From an uncultured Candidatus Saccharibacteria bacterium (GTDB lineage: Bacteria; Patescibacteriota; Minisyncoccia; Portnoybacterales; UBA2143): a stretch of 64,000 bases of DNA. Location of the stretch: assembly GCA_964403725.1 (NCBI GenBank), contig CAYOHI010000005.1, forward strand, positions 3,368 to 67,367, given 5' to 3'. Below the pieces are notes generated by a model, which had not been told where the DNA came from, searched no databases, and saw only the letters and a program-made list of their open reading frames with translations. The translations under genes were made by a program, and so were the position numbers. Below are positions 3,431-64,000 of the stretch, one piece after another. The first letter of the stretch is position 1; every line of letters starts with the position of its first letter.

Positions 3431-3947
3431 ATGATACTAGACTTCTTACCTTATACCCTCTCTCTTCTAATTTCTTAGAACCCCCGAGAAAAGGCAAGTC
3501 AATAATGAAGTGCACTTCTTTAATTTCTCCCCCTAATTCTTCAATCAGGTCACAGGCCGCTACAGATGTTCCACCAGTAGCAGATAGGTCATCAATTAAG
3601 ACAACCTTGTCTCCTTTTTTAATCGCATCCTTGTGCATCTGGATAGTGGCCTGGCCGTATTCTAAATCATAGTCAGCTTCAATCGTATTATACGGAAGCT
3701 TTCCCTTTTTTCTGACAATCGATAGGCCAATTCCCAGTTTGTAGGCTACCGGAGCGGCAAAAAGGAATCCCCTGGCATCAATACCGACAATCTTATCTAT
3801 TTCCTTATCTTTGAAAAACTCACAGAGCTGATCTATGGTTTGCTTAAAAGCTTCTGGATCTTCCAGAATAGTTGTTACATCTTTGAAATTGACGCCTTTC
3901 TTGGGCCAATCTTGCACACCTCTAATTTTATCTTTTAAATCAATCAT
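3417..3947 (-). CDS. apt: adenine phosphoribosyltransferase
   Basis: PRTase type I motif VVLIDDLSATGGTSVAAC; length 176 aa; overlaps the mtnP start by 14 nt, so the two are likely an operon. Confidence 0.9.
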   Translation of the reverse strand: MIDLKDKIRGVQDWPKKGVNFKDVTTILEDPEAFKQTIDQLCEFFKDKEIDKIVGIDARGFLFAAPVAYKLGIGLSIVRKKGKLPYNTIEADYDLEYGQATIQMHKDAIKKGDKVVLIDDLSATGGTSVAACDLIEELGGEIKEVHFIIDLPFLGGSKKLEERGYKVRSLVSYDSE

Positions 3948-41897: not shown

Positions 41898-42956
41898 TTA
41901 GAGAAAATAATTATTCAATGAAAATTCAAACTGTTCTGTGAATAATTTCTTAAAGAATCTAACATTATTTTGCTCGTAAAACAAAAGTGCAGCTTTTTTG
42001 TATTCATTCTCATCAACACTTCTGTAAGATAAAGGACAATAATTATTAGCTAATAGGATAGCGTTACCAAGCAATCTAGCTGTCCGTTTATTCCCATCTT
42101 CAAAAGGCTGGATATATGATATCAGCAAAATGGACACAAGAGATTTAACTAAAGGATGAACCTCTTTTTTATTGATAAATAAAATCATTTTTTCTAATGC
42201 CTCTTTTATCTGAAACTCATTATCAAGCGGCTTGTATTTAGTTCCTGTAATACCCACTAATCGTTTTCTAATTCCTTTCTTAATATTCATGTCTTCTACA
42301 ATCAAGCTATGGATATTTTCTATTTTACCTAAAGTTAATTTTTTGAAATCACTTTTTTTATTCAGAATATATTCTAAGGCTTCTTTATGGTTCAAAATCA
42401 TTTGAGCTTCTTCTTTAGTATGTCCTTCTGCTTCTTTATTCTCCTTGATTAAAATTTCTGTATCAATCAAGGAATATGTATTACCTTCAATTTGGGATGA
42501 TTTCCAACTTAATTCAATAGTCAATCTTTCAAATTCTTTTTTAAGTATGGTCGAAGAAAGGCTTTTTATTCTTTCTTGGTAGTTGTTATTAAGTTTATCT
42601 AATCTATTTAATTCTGTCTCTGAAAAAAGATTGTTATCTAAATTTTCAAAAATTTCAAAATTAAAACCTTCATTTACGAGATTCCTTTGGTCAACTGGAA
42701 CACTAAAATATTCATCAATATTAAAAAAACGAAGTAATTCATTTTTAATATTCTCTTTGTACTTAATATTTCTACCCTTACCTGTTTTTTTAACTAAATC
42801 ATGAGACATTAGAATCTCTAAATCTCGAATAATGGTCGTTCTATCTAAAAGACCAACTTCTTTTTCAAGATATTCTCTAATCTCCTTATTACTGGCCTCG
42901 CCTTTAGCTCTAATGAAATTCAATATTAAATTTTGCCTATTGGAAATTTTTGTCAT
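41898..42956 (-). CDS. Fic-family protein with N-terminal DeoR-like wHTH and non-canonical Fic motif (QPFEDGNKR, catalytic His replaced by Gln)
   Basis: N-terminal LNFIRAKGEASNKEIREYLEKEVGLLDRTTIIRDLEILMSHDLV (wHTH); C-terminal LISYIQPFEDGNKRTARLLGNAILL aligns to the Fic core HPFx(D/E)GNGRxxR with Q at the His position. Confidence 0.75.
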   Translation of the reverse strand: MTKISNRQNLILNFIRAKGEASNKEIREYLEKEVGLLDRTTIIRDLEILMSHDLVKKTGKGRNIKYKENIKNELLRFFNIDEYFSVPVDQRNLVNEGFNFEIFENLDNNLFSETELNRLDKLNNNYQERIKSLSSTILKKEFERLTIELSWKSSQIEGNTYSLIDTEILIKENKEAEGHTKEEAQMILNHKEALEYILNKKSDFKKLTLGKIENIHSLIVEDMNIKKGIRKRLVGITGTKYKPLDNEFQIKEALEKMILFINKKEVHPLVKSLVSILLISYIQPFEDGNKRTARLLGNAILLANNYCPLSYRSVDENEYKKAALLFYEQNNVRFFKKLFTEQFEFSLNNYFL

Positions 42957-49153: not shown

Positions 49154-52100
49154 TTAATTCTCCACTAATTCAACATCTAAGCTTAGTGCTTTTAATTCGC
49201 TGACTAAAACATTAAATGAAGCTGGTACATTAGGAGCTTGGATCTTCTTGCCACGGATGATGGCATCGTATGCTCCGGCCCTGCCAGTTACATCATCTGA
49301 TTTAAAGGTCAGCATTTCTTGCAAGCTATGGGCTGCCCCATAGCCTTCCAAGGCCCAGACTTCCATTTCTCCAAAACGCTGCCCGCCAAACTGGGCCTTA
49401 CCGCCCAATGGCTGCTGGGTAATCAAAGAGTATGGGCCAACTGATCTCATATGCATCTTGTCTTCAACTAAATGCAAGAGCTTCATGACATAAATATATC
49501 CGACGGTCACTGGTTGCTCAAAAGCTTCTCCATTTCTTCCGTCATACAGAGTTACCTTGCCGCTTTCCGGCAGGCCAGCTTTCTTTAATTCATCCTTAAT
49601 ATCATCTTCGGTGATTCCATTAAGTGACGGACTGATCCCGTCATAGCCCAAAGAATTAGCAGCCCAGCCAAAGTGAGTTTCTAAAATCTGGCCAATGTTC
49701 ATACGAGAAGCAACACCTAAAGGATTAAGCACTACGTCAACCGGTGTTCCATCAGCTAGATATGGCATATCTTGTTCTGGCAGGACTTTAGAGATGACGC
49801 CCTTGTTTCCGTGACGTCCAGCTAGCTTATCACCAACTGAAATCTTTCTTAACTGGGCGATTTCAACTTGAATTGTCTTGATGACGCCGCTTGGCAGCTT
49901 ATCTCCCTTATCTCTTGAGAATACCTTGATGCCGACTACCCTGCCTCTCTTGCCATGCGACATTCTCTTGGAAGTATCCTTGACATCCCTGGCTTTCTCG
50001 CCGAAGATTGCTTGGAGCAATCTTTCTTCAGCAGTCAGGTCAGTCTCACCTTTAGGAGAAATCTTACCAACCAGAATATCGTTGGGACCGACTTCAGCTC
50101 CGACTCTGACAATTCCTTCTTCATCCAAGTCTTTTAATCTTTCTTCTCCGACATTTGGAATATCTGGAGTGGTAACTTCAGGTCCTAGTTTAGTTTCCCT
50201 GACATCACAGTCAAAGCTTTCAATATGGATTGAAGTATACCTGTCTTCTTTGACTAATTTTTCAGATAGGATAATAGCGTCTTCAAAGTTGCTACCTCTC
50301 AGAGACATAAAGGCAACTAGCAAGTTTTGACCTAAAGCCAATCTTCCGTTATCAGTAGCTGCTCCATCAGCCAGAACATCGCCCTTCTTAATTTTCTGGC
50401 CCTTTTTGACCAAGGGCCTTTGACAAATGCAGGTATATTGGTTAGTCCTGACAAAAGAGCGCAAAGGATATTCCTTAATCGCTTTCTTAGACTTACTGTT
50501 AACGCCCTTGATCCTTACTTTAATCATATCGGCATCAACTGCTGCAATCGTTCCATCTTCTTCAGCAATCATCATTTCCCCTGAATCTTCAGCTGCTTTG
50601 GCTTCCATGCCAGTACCGACTACTGGAGCTTGCGGCCTGACACAAGCCACAGCCTGGCGTTGCATGTTTGATCCCATTAATGCGCGGTTTGAATCATCGT
50701 GTTCTAAGAAAGGAATCAAGGCTGTAGCAATACTGATTGGCTGCTGCGGGATAACATCAATGAAATCAACGTCTTTTCGAGGAACCGTACTAGGTTCGCT
50801 ATGGACTCTAGCTTCGACTTCCTTATCCAAAAGCTTTCCTTTGTTATCAATTTTTACTCCGGCATGGGCAATGTTGTATTTCTCTTCTTCTGAAGCATTG
50901 AGATAAATAATTTCCTTGGTCAGTCTCCCCTTGTTAACTTTCCTGTATGGGGTTTCAATGAAGCCGTATTCATTCAGACGGGCACAGCTGGCCAAGTGAC
51001 CGACCAGTCCAATATTAGGACCTTCAGAAGTTTCAATCGGACAGATCCTTCCATAGTGAGATGAGTGCACGTCACGCACTTCAAAGCCAGCTCTTTCTCT
51101 GGTCAGTCCGCCTGGACCCATGGCTGACAGACGCCTCTTGTGTTCCAGTTCAGCTAAAGGATTATGCTGATCCATGAATTGTGAAAGCTGGGATGAAGTA
51201 AAGAATTCTTTAATAGAGGCAATGAAAGGCCGGGCATTGATCAACTGGCCCGGGACCAAGTCATGAAGCTCTAGAGTAGACATCCTGTCTCGAATGATTT
51301 TCTCGGTTCGAGCCATACCTACTCTTAATTTATTCTGCAATAGCTCTCCGAAAGCCTTGACTCGACGGTTGCCCAAGTGGTCAATATCATCTACTGTAGC
51401 CAATGGATTGTTGTTTAGTTCAATGATCTCTTTAATGATGCTGACCAAATCATCAAAACGCAAAACACGATCTTCTTGCTTGATCTTGCCTTCAGGCATA
51501 CTTAATCTCTGTCTCATCTTCCAACGCCCAACTTCGCCCAAATCATATCTTTCAAAAGAAAACATTGCTTCAATAAATCCCTGGGCATTGTCTTCAGTAG
51601 CCAGATCTCCTGGCCTGATCCTTTTGTAAATTTCAACGAAAGCCTGGCCGGTGGTTTTAGCAATGTCCTTTTCAATGGTCTTTTCGATATAGTCGATTTC
51701 CGTATCTACTTTTTCAAAAAGCTTCTTGATATCGCTGTTAGCCAGCTCTCCATTCTTAAAGCATTTTGGACTTTCAACTTCCATAGCTGCAAAAGCTCTC
51801 AATACTGAAGTGACAGGAACTTTTCTTTTCCGGTCGATCTTGACGCTGATTGATCCATCTGAATCAGTTTCAAATTCTAGCCAGGCACCTCTATTAGGAA
51901 TGACCTTGGCACCGAATAATTGGACGCCTTTGGACATCTGTGAAGTAAAGAAAGCGCCTGAAGATCTGATTAACTGAGAAATGACGACGCGTTCTACAGC
52001 GTTAACAATGAAAGTACCGCGCTGAGTCATCAAAGGAAAATCGCCCAAGAAAATATCTTGCTCTTTCTCTTCCTTAGTCTTGCTATTAGTCAGCTTGACC

Positions 52101-52342
52101 CGACAATACAAAGGAGCCTCATATGATACGTTATGAGTCTTTGCTTCAATCTCATTGTATTTTGGTTCCTCCAAATGATAGTCCAGAAAACGGAGTTCTA
52201 ACTCCTTATTACCCCAAGGGCGAATTGGCGAGAATTCATCCAAGAGCTCTCTTAAGCCTTTATCCCAGAACCATTGATAAGATTTTTTTTGAACTTCAAC
52301 TAGATCAGGCAGTTGAAAGTTAAATGGGGAGGTTTTTTTCAT
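49154..52342 (-). CDS. rpoB: DNA-directed RNA polymerase subunit beta
   Basis: 1062 aa with conserved beta blocks ([14 protein letters not shown] etc.); stop is 2 nt from the rpoC start. Confidence 0.98.
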
Positions 52343-52391
52343 ATTATCTAAAAAATATTATGACCAAACAGACCATATACACAAAAACACG

Positions 52392-52417
52392 CCCTTCCCT
52401 GTCTTTTGGAAGGGGCT
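52392..52417 (-). terminator. hairpin terminator/attenuator between the small upstream gene and rpoB
   Basis: gcccttcc-ctgtctttt-ggaagggc; minus strand followed by tgtttttgtg. Confidence 0.5.
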
Positions 52418-52527
52418 TTTCATCTTACAAAATTGTCTTATCTGCAAAAAGTATTAATGGTTTTAATACCTCTCTAAAAACTACTTAATTCAAGTATATA
52501 TGAATGTGAAAAAATGTCAAGTTAAAA

Positions 52528-52788
52528 TTACTTAATACCCTTGAGTCCCAGTTTGAATTCTAACTTCTTAACTCTTTTCTCTAAATCCTCCACTTCAAAA
52601 CGATATGCGACATTGCTTAATTTTGACTGAATATCTTCTTGACCTTGCTTTAGATCAAAAAAATTTATCTCCATTTTCTCAAAGCGCTTATCTATCTTTT
52701 CAAAGCGCTTATTATTTCTTTTATCTGCATCATCAAATCCCTTTTGGATCATGATAGCTAATTTTTCATTTGTCATTTCTCTCTTCAT
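52528..52788 (-). CDS. small Lys/Glu-rich coiled-coil protein, hypothetical
   Basis: 86 aa ORF; compositional paralog of the next ORF. Confidence 0.4.
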   Translation of the reverse strand: MKREMTNEKLAIMIQKGFDDADKRNNKRFEKIDKRFEKMEINFFDLKQGQEDIQSKLSNVAYRFEVEDLEKRVKKLEFKLGLKGIK

Positions 52789-52846
52789 AGCTTTTTATCG
52801 GTTTAGTTGATATATATATTATTCCAATTACAAAAACCAAATATAT

Positions 52847-53083
52847 TTAAGAAGTTGCTTTTAAATCCAAATGCCCTTTTATTTGATCTATTTCCCCTTG
52901 CATGCGATCATGAGCTAGCTTGTCCATTTTTGATTCTTGATCAATCTTATCAAATTGACCAGCTATACCATCAATAGCATTCATCATATTATTAAAATCA
53001 CCTTTCGAAGGCATTTTTTCCTCTAAGTTTTTTAAATCTTCTTTAGTAGCTAACTTATTAAATTGTTCTGGTGTTAGAGTCAT
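52847..53083 (-). CDS. small coiled-coil protein, hypothetical
   Basis: 78 aa ORF. Confidence 0.4.
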   Translation of the reverse strand: MTLTPEQFNKLATKEDLKNLEEKMPSKGDFNNMMNAIDGIAGQFDKIDQESKMDKLAHDRMQGEIDQIKGHLDLKATS

Positions 53084-53124
53084 GTATATATTTTAACTCA
53101 TTGGAAATTCTTGTCAAATAAAAA

Positions 53125-53151
53125 TGAGCTCCCGTTGAAGAACGAGAGCTC
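53125..53151 (-). terminator. intrinsic terminator of the O-antigen-ligase-like gene
   Basis: tgagctcccgtt-gaag-aacgagagctca (12-bp stem, one mismatch), then tttttattt on the minus strand. Confidence 0.65.
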
Positions 53152-53174
53152 ACCTTATGAAGTCTTACAATGAC

Positions 53175-55748
53175 TTACTCTTCTGCCGGAGCTACTTCTG
53201 GATTTGGAATTGAAGTTTCTTCAGTTCCTCCTCCGCCCAGCTGCTGAATCTTAGCCTTAATATTCTCGTCATTAGGCATCATTTGCTCTAGAATCTGATA
53301 CTGAATCAAAGCATCTTCAATTCTATTATCTGATTCATAGGAAAGAGCCAAGGCATAACGGGCATTAGCATACTGTGGAGTGATGATAACGGCTTGTTCA
53401 AACATCGGAATCGCTTCCTTTGTTCTCTCAAGGTTGAAATACAACCTGCCAGTCTGGAAATATATTTCAGTGGCTGCCCCAGCAAAATCTGATCCTCGCT
53501 GGAAGCTAACACCCCTTAATTTTTCCAAAATGGCTTCCATTTTCTCCAAAGCTATCTCTAAATCGCCTTTTTGCTCATAAACCAAAGCTAATTGGACATG
53601 GGCATCAAGATAGTTATCCTTCAGTTCGACAGAGCGCTGACAATGGCCAATGGTCTCATCCCAGTCCTTTTCTTCGCTAATCAGGTTCAAACGACACCTT
53701 TCGCGATAGAAAAACGGATTATTAGGCTCTAATTCAGCCGCTTTGGCAAAAGCTTCTAGGGAAAACGGCAATGTTCCCCCTACCAGACCCCTGGCATCAC
53801 GGTAAATTGCGCCTAAATTCTCCCAAGCAGCTACTGAATTAGGGCTTAGAGTCGTCGCTAACCTGGCCTGCTGGATAGAACCGGCTGCCAGAGCTTGCAA
53901 GAGCTGTACATTCTGCTCTGCTTCCGGCTTATTCGCCTCAGCCCAAGCTGTAATCAGATATGCTTGGGAAAGAGCTCTTCGGTAGCTTTCCTGGTAGTTG
54001 TTCAGGATAACGCTGCGCTCCAATTTAGCCACTAATTCTTCGTTAGTTTCAACCGGATCTAGGAATTTGACATCCGCCCAGTAGAATCTTCCTCCTAAAT
54101 AGAAGAAACCTGCCAGAGCGAAGACTAAGATGAGCAAAACTACGTTTAGAACCAATCCGATTTCAGGCATCTTATCGAAGGAAAAACTGATCTTTTTGAA
54201 GGGCTGGTTCTGAACTCCCTGCCAAACTACTACTCCTAAGGCCATAAAGAACCAGAAATAGAAGGAAAGGACCGTATTTTGCATATACACGAATTGTGCC
54301 ACCAAAAGCGATAACCAAGCCAAAATTAGAGGGAAAACCGATATCGGATGACGCTTATCCGATATCGGATAAGTGGAAGATAGGGCTTTTAAGCGCTTTC
54401 TGCTCAAGAAAACCAGTCCAATAAGCAAGAATACCCCTAAAATCATGATATATGAGAGAATTCCCAAAATACCCATGGTTCCAATAGTCTCTAAGATATG
54501 GTTCGGACCCCTGTCAAACCTGACATTCCAGAAATCAGTATTGTTAAACTCTACTGGCTTGAACTTCGAGAAATCTGCAATATATGTCCCTGGACCTGAT
54601 CCAAGAATCGGATAATCCTTCAAGCTCTGCCAAGCAACTGTTCTTGATACCTGGGAATCAAGGATCAATTCCTGCGGCAATGGAAGCAATTGGTTCAAAT
54701 CGCTCAAAAAACCAATCTTACCTGGCAGATTAAACCAGAAAAAACCGGAAATTAGGAGCAAAATTATTGGCAGAGTTAATAAGTTAACTCTTTCTTTGAA
54801 TAACCTGGTCCAAAAGGCAATAACTAGCAAAATGAACATAGTCAGGCCCAGAATTGCCCAAGCAGCAGAGAAATTGATCAAAAGCAGCAAAATCAATGAT
54901 GCTACTAGGAATAGAACCTTGCTTCTCATTCCAGAAGCGCTACCTTTGGATTTCTTCCAAAACATCAGTAATCCCAATATTTTCTTAAAGAATCCTTTCT
55001 TAGTAGCCCCTAGGTCACCTTTAGCAATGCTTTTCTTTGGTACTTGGCTTAAGATCAAACCAACTACCAAGCTCATAGCCATAGCTAAGAAAATAGCCAG
55101 GCCCTCTAGAGAGCCACTGACCGTGTTAAAGGAACGGAAAGTCATCATTTGGGGAAGACCCGGAATCTTGCTCCAAATATTAAAGACGGACAGATAAGCT
55201 GTAACTACAACTATCCAGCTGGAAATCAAGAACAAGCTATAAACCTTTTCCAAAGAAAGACCCCAGATTGTCTTGATTGTTCCCCCACTTGAGGAACTTG
55301 GCTTTACGCTCTTCACATTATTAACCACCACAAAGTACATAACTATCAAAGCCAAGGCTCCGATAACCGAACCTGAGAAGCGGCCGTAGAATCCAAACCA
55401 AGAAGATATTGAATCAATAGAAAAAACTGCACTTAGGACTAAGATCAAAACAAAGACCAGAATCCAAACATCAAGTGCAGTTCGACGAAAGAATAGCTTC
55501 TTGCGGACAACCGCCAATTTGCCCAGCCAAGCCATAAAGGCTATGCTGACCAAAAAGATTAATAAGTATTGCTTGTTAAACTCATATGCTTCGACTGTGA
55601 AAGGCAGCCAAAACAAAGGCATGAGAAAAACTAAGGCGTAAAGCGGAAACTTAATCAAGAAATTGATTATTTTACGCATATTTTTTACCACCCTGCTCGT
55701 AGTTAAGGAATCACAGAAATTATGGAATCTCTGATGACTTGTAGTCAT
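53175..55748 (-). CDS. O-antigen ligase/polymerase-like (Wzy_C) polytopic membrane protein fused to C-terminal TPR repeats
   Basis: >10 TM helices in the first ~600 aa; C-terminal ~250 aa have TPR-like repeats (AIYRDARG..., LALVYEQKGDLEIALEKM, YALALSYESDNRIEDALIQYQ). Confidence 0.55.
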   Translation of the reverse strand: MTTSHQRFHNFCDSLTTSRVVKNMRKIINFLIKFPLYALVFLMPLFWLPFTVEAYEFNKQYLLIFLVSIAFMAWLGKLAVVRKKLFFRRTALDVWILVFVLILVLSAVFSIDSISSWFGFYGRFSGSVIGALALIVMYFVVVNNVKSVKPSSSSGGTIKTIWGLSLEKVYSLFLISSWIVVVTAYLSVFNIWSKIPGLPQMMTFRSFNTVSGSLEGLAIFLAMAMSLVVGLILSQVPKKSIAKGDLGATKKGFFKKILGLLMFWKKSKGSASGMRSKVLFLVASLILLLLINFSAAWAILGLTMFILLVIAFWTRLFKERVNLLTLPIILLLISGFFWFNLPGKIGFLSDLNQLLPLPQELILDSQVSRTVAWQSLKDYPILGSGPGTYIADFSKFKPVEFNNTDFWNVRFDRGPNHILETIGTMGILGILSYIMILGVFLLIGLVFLSRKRLKALSSTYPISDKRHPISVFPLILAWLSLLVAQFVYMQNTVLSFYFWFFMALGVVVWQGVQNQPFKKISFSFDKMPEIGLVLNVVLLILVFALAGFFYLGGRFYWADVKFLDPVETNEELVAKLERSVILNNYQESYRRALSQAYLITAWAEANKPEAEQNVQLLQALAAGSIQQARLATTLSPNSVAAWENLGAIYRDARGLVGGTLPFSLEAFAKAAELEPNNPFFYRERCRLNLISEEKDWDETIGHCQRSVELKDNYLDAHVQLALVYEQKGDLEIALEKMEAILEKLRGVSFQRGSDFAGAATEIYFQTGRLYFNLERTKEAIPMFEQAVIITPQYANARYALALSYESDNRIEDALIQYQILEQMMPNDENIKAKIQQLGGGGTEETSIPNPEVAPAEE

Positions 55749-56044
55749 ACAAAGATTCTCTAAACCTCTAAGGCTTACTTTAAGCCACAGGGGTTTATAA
55801 AGACCTCCGGAAGGGTTGAGAGCTGTACTCTCAATAAGCTAAAGGTTGAACCTATAACCCTTTGTCCTCCTGGATTCTTTACTCGTTTCAGGATGATTGT
55901 TAATGTTTTATTTATTTGTTTTCGACCTTTATCTTTTCCATTTATTGTTTTAATTATACTCTATTTCTATGTTCTTTAGAAGTGGATAACTAGAATATAA
56001 AATTGATGAAATCTTTGCCAGTATAACTATCCCTAACTAAACTA

Positions 56045-56072
56045 TTGACAAAATTTTTTAATTTGTTATACT
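56045..56072 (+). promoter_or_regulatory. sigma70-like promoter (TTGACA-16-TATACT) with no downstream plus-strand ORF
   Basis: Consensus -35 and near-consensus -10 hexamers visible in sequence. Confidence 0.35.
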
Positions 56073-56079
56073 TTTAATA

Positions 56080-56162
56080 TAAATCTCCGGCCGGAGCGTA
56101 ACTCCATTTTATGGTCTTCTTATGACCAGGAGCCAACCTCCCACTTGGCGGGAGGTTTTTTA
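56080..56162 (+). ncRNA. candidate ~80-nt small RNA (promoter to intrinsic terminator, three hairpins)
   Basis: Bounded by promoter 56045-56072 and terminator 56137-56162; hairpins CUCCGG/CCGGAG, GGUC-uucuuau-GACC, CCUCCC-acuuggc-GGGAGG followed by UUUUUU; no ORF >4 codons. Confidence 0.3.
56137..56162 (+). terminator. plus-oriented intrinsic terminator
   Basis: cctccc-acttggc-gggagg followed by ttttttat; on the minus strand the hairpin is not followed by a T-tract. Confidence 0.7.
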
Positions 56163-56570
56163 TTCAAGAGGGAAACAAGACATGAAATATTTTCTTTTAC
56201 TTCTTTTATTCTCTTTTATTTGAACATAAAACAGCTCTCTATCTTTAGTAAGGCCCAAGAATCTGTATAAGATTTCTGTTTTCTTATTTCTATTGACCTC
56301 AATAGATGGCTTATTGCGAGAATTCTTCATTAATTCAATCGCACAATTGAAATATCTCAACCTTATAATTCTTTCCCTGTGTCTTTTTTGATGCAAATGA
56401 ATCCAAAAATAGTTGAAAAATATTTTTTGTTTTCCAAAATAAGCAGAACGGATATAAGGATTCCTCTTGGTTCTTTTCTTAATACGGTTAAATATGACTA
56501 AGGCATTTTTTCTTACTTCCTTGTAACTCGTTCCTGGTATTTTCTTTTTATTAGTTTGATATGGAATCAT
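56160..56570 (-). CDS. small highly basic protein, hypothetical
   Basis: 136 aa ORF, pI clearly basic (KR-rich); no motif recognised. Confidence 0.4.
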   Translation of the reverse strand: MIPYQTNKKKIPGTSYKEVRKNALVIFNRIKKRTKRNPYIRSAYFGKQKIFFNYFWIHLHQKRHRERIIRLRYFNCAIELMKNSRNKPSIEVNRNKKTEILYRFLGLTKDRELFYVQIKENKRSKRKYFMSCFPLE

Positions 56571-56631
56571 AAAATCATTTTGGCATACTGATAATAATCT
56601 TAAATAACGTTTCGATTTTTAACAAGATTTT

Positions 56632-57639
56632 TTACCTTAATAATTGTGTAACTAAAGCAATCATCTGTTCTTTTTCTTTAGGGTTGCTTTCAGCTATTAA
56701 GAGAGCTAAAGCAGTTAAGGTGTTGTCATTAATTTTCTTTTCCCCGTTTAATCTATGCAAAAAATCATTCTTATCTAAGAAATAGACGAATAAAAATGAT
56801 CCAATTCTTTTATTTCCATCAGAAAAAGGATGATCTTTAATTGTTAAATACAAAAGATTAGCTGCTTTTTCTTCTATACTTTTGTATAATTCTTTCTTAT
56901 TGAATGTCTGGTAGATATTTTTGACAACACCCTCAAACTTGTGATTAATTTCATTTCCAAATATATCCCCTGCTTCTTTCTTATCAATTAATTTCTTTTT
57001 TAACTCAACTATTATCTCTAAGCAATCTTGATATTCTAAAACAAATTTTGATTTGCTCTTCTTAATCTGTTTGATTTTATTCTTATCATATTGCTCTAAT
57101 AGAGTTAGAGTTTTGGAGTAATCGGATAATAAATCTAAAATTCCTTTTTCTTGACCTTTTAATAGTTTCTTTTGAGATTTCTTTTTTAGAAAAGAAATAG
57201 TATTTTGTAATTTATTGAATTGCTTTTCTGTTTCTAGTAGTCTTTCTCGATTTATTACATAACCCCTTAAAAGATAATTTTTGAGAGTTTTGGTTGCCCA
57301 GATTCTGAATTGAGTAGCTTTTTTTGAATTAACCCGATAGCCTACTGAGATGATCGCATCTAAATTATAAAATTTAGTTTTGTAGGTTTTATTATCAGCA
57401 GCAGTATGTTCCAAAATGGAACTAACTGAATTTTCATTTAGTTCTTTACTTTTGAATATATTATTTAAATGCTTGGTTATAGCTGGACGCTGCGTACCGA
57501 AAAGCAGAGATATTTGTCCTTGTGTAAGCCAAATACTTTCTTTATTAAATTTAACTTTTAACTCAACGTCACCACCCTTTGGCTGATAAATAATAATTTC
57601 TCCATTATTCAATTGTCTTTTGTTTAAAGTCATATTCAA
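56632..57639 (-). CDS. RhuM-family N-terminal domain fused to Fic/Doc domain (canonical HPFSDGNKR)
   Basis: N-terminal IIIYQPKGGDVELKVKFNKESIWLTQGQISLLFGTQRPAITKHLNNIF...FYNLDAIISVGYRVNSKKATQFRIWATKTLKNYL matches Virulence_RhuM; C-terminal DHPFSDGNKRIGSFLFVYFL is a Doc/Fic motif. Confidence 0.8.
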   Translation of the reverse strand: MNMTLNKRQLNNGEIIIYQPKGGDVELKVKFNKESIWLTQGQISLLFGTQRPAITKHLNNIFKSKELNENSVSSILEHTAADNKTYKTKFYNLDAIISVGYRVNSKKATQFRIWATKTLKNYLLRGYVINRERLLETEKQFNKLQNTISFLKKKSQKKLLKGQEKGILDLLSDYSKTLTLLEQYDKNKIKQIKKSKSKFVLEYQDCLEIIVELKKKLIDKKEAGDIFGNEINHKFEGVVKNIYQTFNKKELYKSIEEKAANLLYLTIKDHPFSDGNKRIGSFLFVYFLDKNDFLHRLNGEKKINDNTLTALALLIAESNPKEKEQMIALVTQLLR

Positions 57640-58691
57640 ACCAAAAAATAACTATCAATAGAAAATTTAAACTGTTCAACGAATAATTCCTTAAAATTCC
57701 TCAAGCTGTTCTGCTCATAGAAAACAATTAAGGCTTTCTTGTATTCAGCTTCATCAACGCTTCTAAAAGAAAGAGGACAAATGTCACTAGCCATCAATAA
57801 GGCATTGCCTAATAGACGAGCTGTCCTTTTGTTCCCATCTACAAACGGCTGGATATATGAAATAAAGACGACAGCAAAAAATGATTTTGAAAAAGGATCG
57901 GATAATTCATTAATCATCTCAACGAACTTATCCATCGCCTCCCTGATTTGATGCTGATTATCCAAAGGCAGATATTCAGTTCCGATTATCCTAACTGGAT
58001 TCTTGCGCAATCCTTTTTCTATGCCTAGCCTATCAACAATTAAATCATGAATTCTTTCGATCTTTGGAATGGAAATCTTTTTGAAGTCATTTTTCTTTTC
58101 AGAGATATAGCCTAAGGCATTCTTATGATTTAAAATCATAATCGCCTCTTCTTTTTTGTGTCCAATAGCCTCCTTATTCTCCTTAATCAATACTTCTGTA
58201 TCTATTAGCGAATATGTATTGCCCTCAATTTTTGATGATTTCCAGCTTAATTCAATAGTTAATCTTTCAAATTCCTTCTTTAGAATATCATTGGGCATCT
58301 TTTTAATCCTGCTCTTATATTCTCTATTAAGCTCATTTAGTTCCTCTAATTCCTGGTTATCGAAAACACTTTCAATATCTTTGAAAATATTAAAATTAAA
58401 GGATTTGAACTTTAATTTCCTCTGTTCGGCTTCTTTTTGGAAATATTTGTCAATGTCAATGTATTGTAGAAAATCGTTTTTAACCTTTTCTTCATAGTAA
58501 ACGCTCCTCCCCTTTCCTTTCTTATCAATTAATCCATCCTTTAGGAGAAAATTCAGATCACGAACAACAGTAATCCGAGAAGTATTTCTCAAGTACTCCT
58601 TGATTTCCTGATTACTAACTTTATTTGATCTTTTAATAAATTCCAGAATCTTCAGTTGTCTGTCATTTAATTTAGTCATTAATTGTATCAT
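57636..58691 (-). CDS. Fic-family protein paralog with N-terminal wHTH and Q-variant Fic motif (QPFVDGNKR); true start possibly Met at 58679
   Basis: Highly similar to the 41898-42956 protein (e.g. KKEFERLTIELSWKSS.IEGNTYSLIDTE.LIKENKEA.GH.KEEA.MILNHK); 4-nt ATGA overlap with the downstream RhuM-Doc gene. Confidence 0.75.
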   Translation of the reverse strand: MIQLMTKLNDRQLKILEFIKRSNKVSNQEIKEYLRNTSRITVVRDLNFLLKDGLIDKKGKGRSVYYEEKVKNDFLQYIDIDKYFQKEAEQRKLKFKSFNFNIFKDIESVFDNQELEELNELNREYKSRIKKMPNDILKKEFERLTIELSWKSSKIEGNTYSLIDTEVLIKENKEAIGHKKEEAIMILNHKNALGYISEKKNDFKKISIPKIERIHDLIVDRLGIEKGLRKNPVRIIGTEYLPLDNQHQIREAMDKFVEMINELSDPFSKSFFAVVFISYIQPFVDGNKRTARLLGNALLMASDICPLSFRSVDEAEYKKALIVFYEQNSLRNFKELFVEQFKFSIDSYFLV

Positions 58692-58740
58692 TTAATACGT
58701 CTTAATTGTATCATAATTAGTTAAAAAATGAAACAATTAA
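58679..58740. repeat. TTAATTGTATCA x2 plus an inverted ACAATTAA copy at the 5' end of the Fic paralog; same 8-bp core as at 42992-43030
   Basis: Directly visible. Confidence 0.5.
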
Positions 58741-58752
58741 AAGACTGATTCC

Positions 58753-59142
58753 CTATTCATTTTTTCTGTATTGTTTCAAATAAGATCTAATTCTGTCTCT
58801 GTTCTCATTCTGTTTCTTACCCTTGAAATATACTTCAATAAATTCAATGCCAATCACATCTATAGTCTCATGATCTTCTGCATAGGCATAAATAATTCTC
58901 AAGCTCTTTTTCTTTAAGCTTCTACAAAAGAATCTGGCTTTGACAATATACACAGATTCAGATTTTGTAATAACATTAAAATGCTTGCCAATCCCTAAAG
59001 GAGATGCTCTTAAAACTTTCTTGAATTCATTTAAATCATCTTTGAGTGATCTGAATTTCTTGAATAGCTTTTTAAAATCTCTTTTAAACTCTTGAGTTTC
59101 TTTAAAGTTCATCTTCATAGTTCCTGATTGAATGATCGTCAT
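58753..59142 (-). CDS. RelE/ParE-superfamily-like toxin (YafQ/HigB-like pattern)
   Basis: FKRDFKKL...YIVKARFFCRSLKKKSLRIIYAYAEDHETIDVIGIEFIEVYFKG fits the RelE/ParE fold signature (K.R...RIIY...I.H..Y); overlaps the upstream HTH-Panacea gene. Confidence 0.5.
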   Translation of the reverse strand: MTIIQSGTMKMNFKETQEFKRDFKKLFKKFRSLKDDLNEFKKVLRASPLGIGKHFNVITKSESVYIVKARFFCRSLKKKSLRIIYAYAEDHETIDVIGIEFIEVYFKGKKQNENRDRIRSYLKQYRKNE

Positions 59143-59875
59143 CGCGATAGAAAACAGTCTCGTAACTTATCTCTTCACCCATCTCATGAACTCGCCAAGG
59201 AGTATCTGAATGGGAATAATCACTCAATTCAGCAGCGTTCTTCCAAGCCAAACGTATCAAAACATCATCAATGTGCTTAATTTCTTGGGCTGACAGGATG
59301 TTTAAGTCAGCTGATCTTCTTGGCAAGTATTTTTTCTGCTCATGCTGGAAGTACTTGCTTTTAATCTTCTCAATTTCACCTTTCCTTATCATTTGATCAA
59401 CTATCTTTTTGAATTCAATCGGTGTTGGGCCGAAATGGTTCTTAATATACTTGGCGCCGATCAGCTGCTCTTCAAATTTTTCATAATAGTCAAAATCTGT
59501 AAAATACAATAATTTGTAAAGTGCTGTTTCGCCAATATTGGGCCTGGCGCCAACTTTTTCTAGAATATATAGGAATACTTCTTTAAATTTCTTAACATTT
59601 GCTCGGGACATAATAATTCTCATTTCAGGCTTATTTGTCTTCTTAGTTTTCTTTTCCTCTTTCAGGTTAACTTTAATTTCCTTTTTCCCTCCACTTAACA
59701 AATCCTTTAACGACATACTAAAAATGGAGGCTAATTTCTGTGCTTCTGGAATAGTTAATTCTCGCTTTCCTTTTTCAACTTGGATATATGTCGGTCTGGA
59801 GATACCAAGTTGATCAGCTAGATACTGTTGAGAATAATTATTTTTCTTTCTTAATTTTTGGATGAATAAAGTCAT
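59102..59875 (-). CDS. XRE-family HTH fused to Panacea (DUF4065) domain - PanA-type antitoxin
   Basis: N-terminal LRKKNNYSQQYLADQLGISRPTYIQVEKGKRELTIPEAQKLASIF (HTH_XRE); C-terminal ETALYKLLYFTDFDYYEKFEEQLIGAKYIKNHFGPTPIEF (DUF4065 core). Confidence 0.7.
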   Translation of the reverse strand: MTLFIQKLRKKNNYSQQYLADQLGISRPTYIQVEKGKRELTIPEAQKLASIFSMSLKDLLSGGKKEIKVNLKEEKKTKKTNKPEMRIIMSRANVKKFKEVFLYILEKVGARPNIGETALYKLLYFTDFDYYEKFEEQLIGAKYIKNHFGPTPIEFKKIVDQMIRKGEIEKIKSKYFQHEQKKYLPRRSADLNILSAQEIKHIDDVLIRLAWKNAAELSDYSHSDTPWRVHEMGEEISYETVFYRDDDHSIRNYEDEL

Positions 59876-59981
59876 GATTTAATTCTATCAATTGTAAAAT
59901 ATATTGTCAAGTGGATAAGTAAATATATTTTACATATTGACAGTATATTTATAATACCTTGTTATGATATAATATTAATAC

Positions 59982-60290
59982 ATGAAAACTAAGCAAACAG
60001 ATAAATTGCCTTCTTTTTTCAAGCCAATTCTTTGGTCTTATGATTTTAATTCCATTAATTTAGAAAAGAATAAGAAAGCTATTATTATCAACTCAATAAA
60101 CTACGGCGATTTGAAGCATTGGCGCTGGATCGTCAAACACTACGGGAAAAAAGAGGTTAAAAAAATATTAACAACTATCCCCTTTACTGAAATTAGACCC
60201 AGGGTTGTCCCTTTAGTTTCTCTGTTATTCTCCATCGATGAATTCAATTATATACCTAGAGGCGTTTCTCAAAAAAAAGCTAATAGATAA
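59982..60290 (+). CDS. hypothetical protein
   Basis: 102 aa ORF with an upstream AT-rich promoter-like region. Confidence 0.4.
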   Translation: MKTKQTDKLPSFFKPILWSYDFNSINLEKNKKAIIINSINYGDLKHWRWIVKHYGKKEVKKILTTIPFTEIRPRVVPLVSLLFSIDEFNYIPRGVSQKKANR

Positions 60291-60767
60291 TCACTTCCTA
60301 TAAGGATTATCCTTCCTCTCAAACCCGCCCTTATCCTCATAAACCCTCATCCAGGCTCTCCTCAAGTTGTTGATCTTAACTCTTTGTCTTTGGTATTTGT
60401 TTAATATCTTGTTAAGCATCTCCTTAATCTCTGCGCTTTCAGTCGTAGCAACGATGAAATCAATCTTAGTCACAATATTGGCAATTATCCTCATAGTCTG
60501 CTCTAATTTACCGAATGCCAGTTGCTTGTCTGAAAACCTGTCGCCATAGCTTTCAGCAGTCAGTTTGGGAATCAGTTTAGATAGAGAGTAAAGGATTTCA
60601 AATTCATCCAATAGATATTTGTTTTTCTTGCTTTTCTTAATTTCAGGGATGAACTTGAATATTTCTGAAGATAGAAGAGTGGTTTGCCTGTATACTTCCA
60701 GATCCCTGAAGCTCTTGACTGGCGATTTGATGCGATACTTTTTGTATTCAGTCTTTTGGTAAGACAT
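60291..60767 (-). CDS. hypothetical helical protein, weak resemblance to the four-helix-bundle (Avd/23S-IVS protein) family
   Basis: SFRDLEVYRQTTLLSSEIFKFI resembles the F.DL.VWQ.A..L...IY N-terminus of TIGR02436, but the QLRRAA.S...NIAEG block is absent. Confidence 0.3.
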   Translation of the reverse strand: MSYQKTEYKKYRIKSPVKSFRDLEVYRQTTLLSSEIFKFIPEIKKSKKNKYLLDEFEILYSLSKLIPKLTAESYGDRFSDKQLAFGKLEQTMRIIANIVTKIDFIVATTESAEIKEMLNKILNKYQRQRVKINNLRRAWMRVYEDKGGFERKDNPYRK

Positions 60768-60843
60768 AGAATTTATACTTAATCAATTTTTTAAACTGAT
60801 ATGTTAATTGCATCAGATTATATCAGATTAGTAAATAGATATT

Positions 60844-61911
60844 CTACTTGTACTTCTTCCTCTTCTTTTTCTTCTTCATGACTACATGCAGTGGAAAGAA
60901 TTCAAAGTAATCACTCTCATCAAACCAGGCGCACTTGAAATGGAAAAGCCGCAAGGATGTCAGGCGGCTCATGGCTAATGCATAAATTGTCAATTGGTCA
61001 ATCGGTTTGACCTTCCTGGCGCTAGGCTTGTAATCCATAATGTGGATTGTTCCGTTTCTGATTTGGATCAGATCGATGTGCCCGGTAACCACTTCTCCTT
61101 CCTTTAAATCCAATGGTACTTGCCAGTTCAATTGATTTTCAAAATGCATTACATCCTCATAATCTAGTAATATTGGCACTTCAGTAGCTACGGTTACCGA
61201 ATCATTGGCCAGCATGAATTCCTGCAGTATCTGATGCCTTAATTTATTGTTGGTTACTGCTTGGATGACAAAGCGGGTAATCTTGTTAGCGCTGTTTTCT
61301 TTCTTGATTATCTTGACCTCATCAGGGTTGAAGAAATCCTTGTACATGGAAGCCCTGTTTTCTGATTCTCTGAATATGTGATGGGGGCATTCAGCTGAAA
61401 CTAGCTCGAGAAATTCCTTAATCTGCCTTAATTTGTAGTGCTTGAAATCTTCTTCTAGGATGCAGTCTGTCTTGGCCCTATGATATTTGAAATCATATAT
61501 CTGGCCGTGCATCAGATGGACTTCGTCAATGATTTCCTTGGGAGAATATTTCTTATTCACAAAATCTCTGATTCTTAAGAATGGCAGGTATTCTCTGTAT
61601 CCTTTAGCCCAGTTAAGGACAGTCTGCTCGCTTAAATCAAATCCATACCTGTCTTTAATCTTAACTATGATATCCTTAGTTGTGAAAAGGCGGTTGTATA
61701 GGGTGATTGTGTCTAGAATAATCCTTAGAGGATATGTTCTGCTTTTAGTAATTTGCGGAGTGAATTTCTTTTGACAGTCTTTGCAGAAATATATTTGGAT
61801 TTCCTCCAGTTTCTTCTTTCTTCTTCCTTTCTTGGTAATATTTTTACCCTGGCAATACGGGCAAGTCTCAACTTTTTTCTCTAATTTTTCATTTTGCTTG
61901 TCTAAAAGCAT
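60844..61911 (-). CDS. IS1595/InsA-type zinc-ribbon + HTH N-terminus fused to RecB-family PD-(D/E)xK nuclease-like domain
   Basis: CPYCQGKNITKKGRRKKKLEEIQIYFCKDCQKKFT (Zn_Tnp_IS1595-like); C-terminal GHIDLIQI...IHIMDYKPS...QLTIYALAM corresponds to RecB-nuclease motifs II, III and QhxxY. Confidence 0.55.
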   Translation of the reverse strand: MLLDKQNEKLEKKVETCPYCQGKNITKKGRRKKKLEEIQIYFCKDCQKKFTPQITKSRTYPLRIILDTITLYNRLFTTKDIIVKIKDRYGFDLSEQTVLNWAKGYREYLPFLRIRDFVNKKYSPKEIIDEVHLMHGQIYDFKYHRAKTDCILEEDFKHYKLRQIKEFLELVSAECPHHIFRESENRASMYKDFFNPDEVKIIKKENSANKITRFVIQAVTNNKLRHQILQEFMLANDSVTVATEVPILLDYEDVMHFENQLNWQVPLDLKEGEVVTGHIDLIQIRNGTIHIMDYKPSARKVKPIDQLTIYALAMSRLTSLRLFHFKCAWFDESDYFEFFPLHVVMKKKKKRKKYK

Positions 61912-62134
61912 ATTTAGGTCTCACATTTTAGAAAAAAATGTGCTTAATTTATTTAAATTCTTTAAAAAAGGCTTGAAATGCATATATTTGGCTTGGTTAT
62001 GGGGTAAATATTTACATACCCTTATTTTACTGATAGATAAGCCGAGTATTGGAAACCAGGTCCTTGATTCTATTAGTGAAAAGCATCGAATACTATAAAA
62101 TTACAACCACTTTCCACAATGCGAGACCTGGAAA

Positions 62135-64000
62135 TTAAAGAATATCTTCCGTGGTACTGGCAGTTTCTTCAGCTACTGGTTCTTCAATAATTTCTTCTTC
62201 AACCACTGGTTCTTCTATTATTGGTTCAGTAATTTCCTCAATTTCTTTCTCAACAGATTCCTCTATTATTTCCTCTTCGACTGGTTCTTCTGTCGTATCT
62301 TCAATAATGAATATTTCCGTGCTTGTTGAAGTTGGCTCAACTATCGGCTCTTCGATAATTTCTTCTGTTGTTGTAGAAGTTTCTTCTGGATCTTCAATCC
62401 CTTCCAGAATATTATTACACTCCCCTGACCTGGTCATAGGCATACCGTATTCAGTGTATAGGCAATATGGAGTTCCAGTCTTGCTGTCATAGATCGTAAT
62501 TCCGCTCTCGGTAGCTGATTCAGACTTAATCTTAAGATTTTCAGTTTCAATGTATTTAGCCTTAATCTTATCAGCTACCAGGGTTCCTTCTGAATCAACT
62601 CTTAATTCAACTCTTTCTCCATCTTCGTTGATAACTACTACTCCTGTATCTTCTTGAACTTCTGAATCAGGATTAGTTAGATAACCATTAGCTTCTAAGA
62701 CAGCTTTTAATTCATCTACTTCGCTCTTTAGGGCTTTAACACCGGCGATAGCAAAGGTAGCGTAATCGTATAGGGATACTGATTTGCCATTTTCACTTAA
62801 GACTTGTTCTGGTGCTTCTTCAGCGATGACGCCAAGATTAAATCCTTTAGATGAAGTGCCAGTATTATGGGCTTGAGAATTATAGTTAACTACTGGACCT
62901 TGGGCTACATCTTTCTTCCATTTGTATGTAGCTACATCCATATCCTCAATTTCATCTAGAATATCTTCATAATCTTTTTCTTCTAGATATGTAATATCTG
63001 TTTTGTATTCTTTAGATGAATATACCTCCCAACCATCAGCAATGGCATTACCCATTCCTTGTCCAACGGTTAAGACATGAGTTGGACTATTGGTGGCAAT
63101 ACCAAAGTTGCCATTATTTAGAAGCATCATTAATGGACTTGATGAAGAATTATACATAGCCATAGCTGGCGTGTTATCTGTATTATCTGTTTGCATGGAT
63201 AGCTTGGCCATTGGGGTGGTTGTTCCAATGCCAACATTGCCAATTATATCTATTGTCAATGAAGGAGTGGTTGTTGGAGCAGAAGCTAGATCAACTGTTT
63301 CTAAGATTCCTTTAATCCCAGCTAAAGCTACGCCTGCCATGTCTGTAGCTTTAATTCGGGTGTCTTTAGCGCCTAAGCCGAATAGCTTGTAGAAATCCTG
63401 GGCAGTTGGTCCGATATGTTTGACTGTACTGGAACTCATTTCATTGTAATCGCCATCATCAATGAAGTTGTATTGACTGATTGGCATCAATGATAATCTA
63501 TTCAATAATTCATTGTTAGTTAGATTGACGTTAGAACCAGTATCGTACTCGATTGAATTAATAGTTGAGCCGTTGCCAGTCCAGCTGCCTGTTGTGACTG
63601 GATTTAGTGAAATACTATTCAAGTTAATGAAGTTCTCTTTTTTGTTCCTGTCTGATGAATCTGTCCAGCCTGATGTTGTGCCGTAGGTGTCTGAGTCTAG
63701 TTGAATCAAGCGAGTAGGGTTTGTTATACCGATGCCGACGTTGCCGGAGCTGTCCATCGTCATCTTAACGGCATTGTTTATCAACCACTCATTACTTGTA
63801 TCAGTAGTATGGCGAATTGCCCAATTACCATCATCATCTAAAAAACCTATTTTGCCAGCTTCTGCATATACAGAACCATCAGTAGCACCGCCAGAATCAA
63901 TAAATTTAATAAACCCAGCAGAACTAGCGCTATGGAGCTCTATCATCTGGCTATCGCCATCTTGTAGTTTAACGCCACTATGAAATTTAATAGCACTATC
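62135..64000 (-). CDS. tail-fibre-like surface protein with GNVGIG(T/I)T(T/N)P repeats, two Peptidase_S74 intramolecular-chaperone domains and acidic C-terminal repeats; N-terminus beyond the window
   Basis: SDRNKKENF...KHIGPTAQDFYKLFGLG...GVALAGIKGIL and KEYKTDITYLEE...YKWKKD...GVIAEEAPEQVL...YDYATFAIAGVKALKSEVDELKAV both match the S74 (chaperone of endosialidase) consensus; ORF is open to the window edge. Confidence 0.7.
   Translation of the reverse strand, partial: DSAIKFHSGVKLQDGDSQMIELHSASSAGFIKFIDSGGATDGSVYAEAGKIGFLDDDGNWAIRHTTDTSNEWLINNAVKMTMDSSGNVGIGITNPTRLIQLDSDTYGTTSGWTDSSDRNKKENFINLNSISLNPVTTGSWTGNGSTINSIEYDTGSNVNLTNNELLNRLSLMPISQYNFIDDGDYNEMSSSTVKHIGPTAQDFYKLFGLGAKDTRIKATDMAGVALAGIKGILETVDLASAPTTTPSLTIDIIGNVGIGTTTPMAKLSMQTDNTDNTPAMAMYNSSSSPLMMLLNNGNFGIATNSPTHVLTVGQGMGNAIADGWEVYSSKEYKTDITYLEEKDYEDILDEIEDMDVATYKWKKDVAQGPVVNYNSQAHNTGTSSKGFNLGVIAEEAPEQVLSENGKSVSLYDYATFAIAGVKALKSEVDELKAVLEANGYLTNPDSEVQEDTGVVVINEDGERVELRVDSEGTLVADKIKAKYIETENLKIKSESATESGITIYDSKTGTPYCLYTEYGMPMTRSGECNNILEGIEDPEETSTTTEEIIEEPIVEPTSTSTEIFIIEDTTEEPVEEEIIEESVEKEIEEITEPIIEEPVVEEEIIEEPVAEETASTTEDIL

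Follow-up and report, generated by a model that had tools for sequence, protein, structure and literature searches.

PD-(D/E)XK nuclease domains are found in selfish and mobile DNA, in homing endonucleases such as I-Ssp6803I and in TnsA, and proteins of this class take part in transposition, as TnsA does in Tn7. Rpn/YhgA-type proteins are PD-(D/E)XK nucleases described as 'transposase-like', and InsA represses by binding to the ends of IS1. Solo genes of the Cas4 family are enriched in the candidate phyla radiation (CPR) and in DPANN archaea and have been exchanged between both (PMC5704561). The text of that survey uses 'zinc' or 'Zn-ribbon' zero times, and mentions no four-helix-bundle partner and no fibre-gene association. 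The PF05635 family (23S rRNA intervening-sequence protein) is reported to resemble Avd, the accessory protein of diversity-generating retroelements (DGRs), and to be the commonest DGR neighbour (PMC10053308). Here we describe a gene, C, on a 64,000-nucleotide stretch of contig CAYOHI010000005.1 from an uncultured Candidatus Saccharibacteria bacterium (the window, below), whose product joins the DNA-binding head of a transposase to a nuclease of the RecB type. No description of this architecture was found in the open-access literature.

Our preferred reading, to which we assign a probability of roughly 45%, is that C is a sequence-specific DNA endonuclease, not a transposase, around which a horizontally transferred cassette for maintenance or conflict, of the addiction/defence type, is built. 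The InsA-type zinc ribbon and helix-turn-helix (HTH) head would tether a catalytically intact RecB/Cas4-type PD-(D/E)XK domain to DNA. In CPR bacteria, DPANN archaea and Omnitrophota, C would work with a co-transcribed partner, B, which probably binds or restrains it; the B-C pair is lodged in toxin-antitoxin (TA) islands downstream of surface-fibre genes. On putative episomes of purple sulfur bacteria, a solo C sits beside partition and replication genes. The likeliest DNA target of the head would be a co-inherited triple repeat (AAAYTCG plus a lineage-specific half) in the 3' flank of the fibre gene. We infer the binding of this element by C, the cutting of DNA by C, the modulation of C by B, and the biological role. 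The gene and its parts lie in the window as follows (aa, amino acid residues of the protein).

60844-61911, minus strand: gene C, an open reading frame (ORF) of 355 aa with a zinc ribbon/HTH and a RecB-type nuclease domain.
61759-61863, minus strand (aa 17-51): C4 zinc ribbon (C17, C20, C43, C46), matched by NCBIfam NF050000 at aa 17-51.
61600-61728, minus strand (aa 62-104): HTH-like three-helix region, with AlphaFold helices at 62-73, 78-89 and 95-104.
61204-61575, minus strand (aa 113-236): conserved helical middle region with no family match, containing the motifs HGQIYDFKYHRAK, ECPH and NNKLRHE.
60880-61194, minus strand (aa 240-344): PD-(D/E)XK core (E244, D280, D293-x-K295, Q306xxxY310), supported by Pfam and the RecB alignment.

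An initial annotation of this ORF had pointed to the strings CPYCQGKN...YFCKDCQKKFT, GHIDLIQI, IMDYK and QLTIY, all of which are present, and had likened the head to that of IS1595 or IS1 InsA transposases. The family at large bears out this likeness: the IS1/IS1595 Zn domain (NF050000) matches 52 of 53 members and the N-terminus of the IS1 model 47 of 53. The window protein itself scores 26.5 bits against the Zn domain (cut-off 28, E=7e-6) and aligns with positions 1-81 of the 199-position IS1 transposase model, reaching aa 107. Pfam Zn_ribbon_InsA is matched by 22 of the 53 members, HTH_33 by seven and HTH_28 by two. All four zinc-ribbon cysteines are invariant in alignments of 20 and of 53 sequences. 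The AlphaFold model of C has a predicted local distance difference test score (pLDDT) of 78.8 and a predicted template modelling score of 0.73; the strands of the ribbon are at 25-32, 37-43 and 48-50, and the best part of the model is aa 241-340 (pLDDT 83-94).

This best part holds the nuclease. Pfam PDDEXK_1 (PF12705) matches aa 250-317 of the window protein above its cut-off (26.2 bits against 22, E=9e-6), as it does all 53 members tested (best E=5e-8), in keeping with the earlier assignment of the C-terminus to the RecB family. The initial annotation had named beforehand, as an outcome that would speak against it, a failure of these residues to align with catalytic positions; the family profile aligns without gaps to residues 1059-1083 of E. 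coli RecB, with D280, D293 and K295 falling on the catalytic positions D1067, D1080 and K1082. E244, D280, D293, K295, Q306 and Y310 are invariant in both alignments. Strands at 240-250, 274-285, 288-294 and 325-330, together with flanking helices, form a restriction-endonuclease-like alpha/beta fold in the model. Its top PDB folds by Foldseek are the RecB and AddA nuclease domains, the Cas4 proteins SSO0001 and Pcal_0546, and MGME1, in matches that are weak but consistent (E ~3e-3, probability ~0.9, template modelling score 0.2-0.33). The alignments to RecB, AddA and Cas4 (140-237 columns) probably include part of the middle region, where H135, Q137, K147, E169, P176, H177, R186, N222, R225 and H226 are invariant in the 20 sequences. 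PDB sequence searches with the protein and family profiles gave nothing useful for the nuclease part. In C, then, an intact nuclease of the RecB type is joined to a head of the transposase type that reads sequence.

Cas4 proper was considered and ruled out for C, because the protein lacks the Fe-S cysteines and a convincing match to PF01930 (Cas_Cas4), which gives only a marginal match in 2 of 53 members (E=0.05). The C-terminal CxxCxxxxxC of Cas4 is not present, and outside the zinc ribbon only C175 and C327 are conserved. Within PADLOC-DB, C matches only a generic model of Argonaute-associated Cas4-like nucleases (E=1e-7, aa 230-318).

The head also raises the question of whether C is a new kind of transposase, with PD-(D/E)XK in place of DDE. 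The zinc ribbon is of the IS1/IS1595/IS256 type, JGI names several members 'transposase-like protein', the gene is multi-copy in some genomes and has crossed between phyla, and TnsA of Tn7 offers a PD-(D/E)XK precedent. Pfam and NCBIfam scans of the window protein and the 53 members returned zero matches to any DDE family, the detection of which was the other outcome that would have spoken against the initial annotation, and terminal inverted repeats are lacking around C both in the window and at a homologous two-copy locus; the initial annotation had reported both absences for the window. The two-copy locus, from an Aenigmarchaeota genome (L006), carries two C paralogues 4 kb apart amid HEPN/MNT and HicAB cassettes, 38% and 59% identical to the window protein, and these paralogues share DNA similarity only inside the coding region. 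The window has no second copy of C in its 64 kb, the position of the gene is syntenic between related genomes, and the repeat element of the spacer described below does not recur after the cargo. As far as sequence goes, the transposase reading is refuted, and we consider it highly improbable. At L006, the last ~90 nucleotides (nt) of the paralogues (3457-3548 and 8247-8338) are 84% DNA-identical; the likeness of their C-termini (CAWFD...FFPLH) suggests gene conversion or very strong constraint.

The C family is large. A homologue search returned 3,238 clusters (at 90% identity), the best 120 of which all extend over the full length, at 55-88% identity. Among representatives at 50% identity, which were searched exhaustively, 296 clusters match at E<=1e-30 and as many as 2,860 at E<=1e-3, and nearly all full-length members among these representatives cover the entire profile. 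At least 526 genomes encode the family in data with one genome per species; among the genomes listed, the majority are Patescibacteria (CPR), Omnitrophota and DPANN archaea. Sporadic carriers are found in Planctomycetota (including an anammox bacterium), Fibrobacterota, Endomicrobia, purple sulfur Gammaproteobacteria and bins labelled Bdellovibrionales. Bacterial and archaeal members are 55-65% identical over the full length, and 68 columns are invariant in 20 sequences from both domains, many of them in the middle region (aa 113-236). Database labels vary from 'PD-(D/E)XK nuclease family protein' to 'transposase-like protein' (JGI, several members) and 'hypothetical'.

The C family has been transferred horizontally. 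A neighbour-joining tree groups most archaeal sequences into a single DPANN clade placed within bacterial lineages. Another archaeal pair falls in a divergent subfamily, and the bacterial phyla are intermixed. Parsimony on this tree requires at least four domain switches, one of which (L059/L060, with identical sequences) is probably a binning artefact. These two loci have the same C sequence and spacer in bins labelled 'Methanosarcinales archaeon' and Patescibacteria, respectively; their identity indicates that the taxonomic labels of some loci from metagenome-assembled genomes (MAGs) are unreliable. Some genomes hold multiple copies of C. Searches of IMG/VR viral contigs, of GenBank phages and of PLSDB plasmids returned no homologue of C.

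The neighbours of C were analysed by clustering the ORFs of 82 non-redundant C loci. A near-constant companion is gene B.

60291-60767, minus strand: gene B, a 158-aa four-helix-bundle partner, divergent PF05635/Avd-like.

A gene of this kind (~155 aa), adjoining or overlapping C on the same strand, is present in 73 of the 82 loci. The order of the pair is variable, with B ahead of C in 48 loci and behind it in 26. The model of B (pLDDT 83.9) has four long helices. PF05635 is matched by 4 of 16 B members (best E=6e-7), and several database homologues of B have a precomputed PF05635 match or are named 'four helix bundle protein'. With PADLOC-DB, B gives only a marginal Cas3c match (E=0.026). 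A stand-alone gene for a 228-aa PDDEXK_1 nuclease adjoins B in 11 loci (e.g., L001 2617-3303), often overlapping it by 4 nt; the window has no such gene.

The window is ordinary chromosome carrying an accessory TA island; an accessory island had been proposed as the setting of C from the start. The order on the minus strand is a fibre-like gene (A), C, B, the TA island, a TPR/Wzy_C membrane protein, rpoB, rpoC, ftsK, Fic and recA. At other loci the variable cassettes include HicA/HicB, MNT/HEPN pairs, an NYN RNase, the 228-aa PDDEXK_1 gene, AAA_14-DUF4143 ATPases and an IS200-type Y1 transposase. An adjacent, same-strand B/C pair amid HicAB, MNT/HEPN, NYN and Fic cassettes is an arrangement that a TA or addiction module would show. 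The description of C as a domesticated targeting module driving a nuclease is fair as an account of structure, and a defence or addiction role fits the neighbours. The classical homing function that had been offered beside it is unsupported, with no empty-site or presence/absence polymorphism found for C and with related genomes carrying C at the same locus. C had also been taken as a lone gene, which overlooked the cross-domain family, the four-helix-bundle partner, the upstream fibre gene and the triple repeat in the spacer.

The module occupies the same site, upstream of the TPR gene and rpoB, in L001 and several related Patescibacteria contigs that lack the TA island. The island of the window (56160-60290, ~4 kb), absent at the syntenic L001, lies between B and the TPR/Wzy_C gene; the intergenic DNA is too diverged from that of L001 for boundaries to be drawn, and no att-like repeats were seen in this comparison. 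Two Fic proteins are encoded there, one with a DeoR-type HTH and the other RhuM-Fic. The gene of an HTH_3+SocA/Panacea antitoxin overlaps an ORF of 129 aa, a DUF6922 protein is encoded on the opposite strand, and an ORF of 136 aa (56160-56570) has a very basic product without a family. The last of these starts MIPYQTNKKKIPGTSYKEVRKNALV, and a look-alike start, MIPYQTKVNKLSGMRYGEVKKQAL, is found in L009 (~1616-2122) between the fibre gene and C; this ORF may recur in such islands as a further passenger. At a distance from the TA island, a third Fic/DOC protein, which has an N-terminal winged helix, is encoded between recA and ftsK (41898-42956).

Upstream of C lies the fibre-like gene, which in the window has the following location.

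62135-63946, minus strand: gene A, encoding a fibre-like protein of 603 aa that contains GNVGIGT repeats and an internal Peptidase_S74 chaperone domain and has a tail of low complexity, rich in acidic residues.

The window protein matches Pfam Peptidase_S74 (E=2.4e-13) and PHROG tail proteins. A gene of the A family lies upstream of C, in the same direction, in 51 of the 82 loci, and is heterogeneous between them, varying from ~400 to >2,400 aa with an unconserved C-terminus. The S74 domain of the window protein is in mid-protein (aa 310-386 of 603), not C-terminal, and is followed by ~220 aa ending in the acidic EEPxVEE low-complexity tail. Hint/intein-splicing domains occur in some A homologues (L039 96-3077, Intein_splicing E=1e-27; L062 71-3400), and could be true inteins or bacterial intein-like autoprocessing domains.

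A fibre-type target, a 3' hairpin element and then an Avd-like gene recall the layout of a DGR. In principle, B and the nuclease C could diversify the fibre gene, either in place of a reverse transcriptase or alongside one. The resemblance of PF05635 to Avd points the same way, as does the tendency of contigs to break in or upstream of A: contig ends lie upstream of C in 63 of 79 cases and downstream in 47 of 79. This excess also fits the breaking of assemblies by the repeats and paralogues of A. No template/variable repeat pair is present in 12 kb around the module, where a search for repeat pairs of >=30 nt (52000-64000) found only low-complexity repeats. No reverse transcriptase was found among the scanned neighbours in the window, and the 82 loci have no recurrent neighbour cluster of reverse-transcriptase size. 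The C-termini of A are low-complexity, not lectin-like. Two further assemblies of essentially the same organism (L090 and L091) are 100% identical to the window from inside A to rpoB; they end ~280-310 nt into A, at window positions 63669 and 63639. The identity of the three assemblies argues against ongoing hypervariation of the 3' end of A. We regard a DGR-like or other diversifier of the fibre gene as very improbable.

The spacer between A and C contains a repeat element, a triple repeat in its common form, with these components in the window.

61916-62129, minus strand: A-C spacer, which holds the repeat element.
62118-62129: inverted copy, AGGTCTCGCATT, in the A-C spacer.
Near 62083-62094 (then a T-run) and 62059-62071: degenerate direct copies, in the A-C spacer.
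61916-61929: clean direct copy, AAAATGTGAGACCT, ending 4 nt ahead of the ATG of C.

The same layout is found across all major lineages: an inverted copy of 11-13 nt followed by two direct copies, in fixed order. The first direct copy lies 34-35 nt further on and is followed by a T-run, and the second lies another 23-24 nt beyond. Extra direct copies of the site are often found closer to B or C. The site combines a constant half, AAAYTCG, with a lineage-specific half that is common to all copies within a locus (GGGAC, GGGAG, GAGAG, GAGAC, GTGAG, GTGGC, GTCAC and others). In a 16-locus alignment assembled by hand from visible repeats, a caveat on the covariation, 88.9% of cells show pairing between the inverted copy and the first direct copy, and 78.5% show it between the inverted copy and the second; the maxima for slid controls are 53.5% and 47.9%, and the observed values were reached in 0 of 500 shuffles. 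RNAalifold separately recovers the first hairpin of the element. A hairpin needs only two arms, and the covarying third copy points to a repeated recognition site of a co-evolving factor. As it occurs beside the module in both bacteria and archaea, the element is probably more than a terminator or promoter of the host.

Calls of the element rely on per-locus motifs with one mismatch allowed. A regular-expression and lenient triplet scan is noisy, with some triplet in 26 of 40 shuffled loci. Elsewhere in the 64-kb window the motif does not occur beyond chance. A metagenome scan with the hairpin and T-run only also retrieved many unrelated terminators; the informative matches are those with the third copy, which amount to about four independent cases. 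Six third-copy matches with enough downstream sequence (~three independent) have B and/or C downstream. These data place the element in the flank of A-type genes, usually, not always, accompanied by B-C. A large structured non-coding RNA in the window spacer was considered and dropped (folding z=-1.63, not significant); Rfam finds nothing in the spacer, and its sole match in the whole window is a tRNA-Gln. The intergenic DNA near the module also contains GC-rich palindromic repeats at several loci (L025 3148-3277, L027 831-1076 and the L009 spacer), in units such as GGAACGGTCGCGACCGTTCC, CGTAGGGGCG and GAGTTGGGAG that resemble repetitive extragenic palindromic (REP)-like or miniature repeat elements.

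The placement of the last copy 4 nt before the start codon of C, in the window and its close relatives, is also what an operator would look like. C could be mainly a transcription factor, with its head on operator-like repeats that control read-through from the fibre gene, or a housekeeping nuclease that serves general repair in organisms with reduced repair repertoires. The terminator-like hairpin and T-run are consistent with the former, and strong purifying selection over the whole length of C with either. The gene is chromosomal and lies near rpoB and ribosomal-protein operons in several CPR lineages; a WWE3 genome, for example, has the module beside a rplL-rplJ-rplA-rplK-nusG-secE cluster. 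The distribution of C is, however, patchy and horizontally transferred, not lineage-wide, and C is found in TA islands and in the maintenance region of episomes. Cassettes part the element from B and C in many loci, so that it cannot be their proximal operator there. Repression in the style of InsA, moreover, needs no conserved nuclease. A regulatory or repair role as the main function of C is therefore improbable in our view.

The element lies at the exact junction of A with the variable cassettes, and together with the module it has crossed between domains. This position would suit a recombination-initiating, homing-like nuclease: C and B would nick or cut at the element and provoke RecA-dependent copying or exchange of the downstream module, so that element, B, C and cassettes are exchanged between fibre-gene paralogues or between genomes. 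Such an activity would account for the spread of the module and its constant position. The head is of transposase descent, the nuclease is of a type used for end-processing, some genomes have several copies, and RecA is encoded in the window. Duplications are also in line with it. A unit consisting of the A 3' end, the element, B and C is tandemly duplicated in L039 and L107/L108, taking in the last ~180 nt of A in L039, and in L025 the A 3' end and the element are duplicated around the cassette. Against this stand the lack of a second boundary site or repeat after the cargo, the synteny of related genomes without presence/absence polymorphism, the 100% identity of three independent assemblies across the 3' part of A, the spacer, C and B, and the solo copies in proteobacteria, at which a scan found no consensus element. 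No distal copies of the element follow the cargo genes in any locus examined, and its sites are therefore not transposon ends. Weighing these points, we see in a homing-like role the chief rival of our reading, possible and on the unlikely side. Distinctly less plausible, and quite unlikely in our judgement, is the bolder proposal that C and B form a new DNA-targeting machine of CPR bacteria, DPANN archaea and Omnitrophota, which would cleave at the co-evolving element to move or exchange fibre-linked cassette islands without a DDE transposase, a tyrosine or serine recombinase or a reverse transcriptase.

The solo copies also bear on the maintenance or conflict cassette that we prefer. In Thiocapsa sp. 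KS1 (L083) and a related gammaproteobacterial contig (L087), the C homologues retain every motif. At both loci C is followed by a ParA-type ATPase, a ribbon-helix-helix (RHH, ParG-like) protein and a divergently oriented Rep_3 initiator (L083 3926-7277; L087 3890-7201), a region that serves the replication and partition of a plasmid-like replicon. Scaffold3 of Thiocapsa sp. KS1 (44.7 kb) is probably a plasmid or chromid, because its C homologue adjoins parA, RHH and Rep_3. The two loci are 77% identical over 5.3 kb and therefore count as one independent observation. The solo copies make C the minimal unit, whose neighbours are again maintenance or addiction functions. A small ORF between C and parA was considered as a candidate B at both loci and rejected; it has no similarity to B and looks non-coding or spurious in this high-GC DNA. 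A perfect palindrome of 16 bp, GTGTTTCCGGAAACAC, precedes C in L083, and half-sites related to it lie close by.

Several observations weigh against a maintenance or conflict cassette built on C, B and the element. None of the system-specific model sets of PADLOC is matched by C or B, and the full-length cross-domain identity of C (55-65%) is exceptionally high for a defence or toxin gene. A plain addiction or defence role leaves the constant association with a fibre gene unexplained. The link of B to PF05635 is only moderate and rests on a minority of members, and PDB profile and Foldseek searches with B returned generic bundles only, without singling out 4DWL or 2GSC. Neither A nor B lies within 4 kb of the proteobacterial copies of C, and the consensus element was not found in a scan of these loci. 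Conversely, L117 has the element, fibre genes and TA-like cassettes without B or C within 4.9 kb. Among the residues of C, those of the zinc-ribbon region have slightly higher mutual information with the site class (K49 is replaced by T in the GTGAG class), an association that is confounded by phylogeny.

The organisms concerned give these questions some weight. CPR bacteria, DPANN archaea and Omnitrophota are very small and largely host-dependent, and their accessory genomes are poorly understood; the C family is among the more strongly conserved proteins common to these groups across the divide between bacteria and archaea. With its partner, the co-evolving cis-element and its conservation across domains, C is of more interest than a bare fusion would be. 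Knowledge of the target of C, the role of its Avd-like partner and the link to the fibre gene would establish a new module of conflict, maintenance or recombination. PF05635 proteins outside DGRs would gain a function, and the way in which TA cassettes and islands of fibres or adhesins move between episymbionts might be explained. A compact nuclease with a separable specificity head and naturally varying target half-sites could serve engineering. Thiocapsa sp. KS1, labelled as a strain and not as a MAG, is a possible experimental entry point.

Compared with described systems, the module shares parts with several. Rpn proteins, like C, are PD-(D/E)XK nucleases that have been labelled transposases, with no sequence relationship to C (no Pfam match). 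IS1 InsA and IS1595 share with C a C4 zinc ribbon followed by an HTH; the likeness to these transposases ends with the head, as C is without DDE, terminal inverted repeats and element boundaries. In I-Ssp6803I and TnsA the PD-(D/E)XK domain is steered by a separate DNA-recognition function, as in C. Unlike them, C has no intron or intein host, no empty-site allele and no partners of the TnsB/TnsC type, and no sequence similarity to homing endonucleases or TnsA appeared in any scan made. B resembles the Avd/PF05635 family in being a basic four-helix bundle of ~150 aa, and Avd itself in lying beside the gene of a nucleic-acid enzyme, downstream of a fibre-type gene with a 3' hairpin. It differs from DGR Avd in having no reverse transcriptase or template/variable repeat pair, and most B members fall below Pfam detection.

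TA and plasmid-addiction cassettes are likewise small, co-directional, often overlapping and order-variable gene pairs, which are frequently transferred horizontally and can be present several times in one genome. C is a much bigger protein than a typical toxin and a far better conserved one, and the fibre gene and repeat element of its module have no counterpart in TA cassettes or in Rpn. The RecB, AddA, AddB and solo-Cas4-like nucleases of PF12705 have the same motifs at the same spacing as C (G-x-ID ... D-x-K ... QxxxY). C differs from the RecB family in the absence of a helicase fusion, and from Cas4 in the absence of the four-cysteine Fe-S cluster and a CRISPR context. To the nuclease that it shares with RecB and Cas4, C adds two parts on which the Cas4 survey is silent, a transposase-type zinc ribbon/HTH head and a conserved middle region of ~120 aa.

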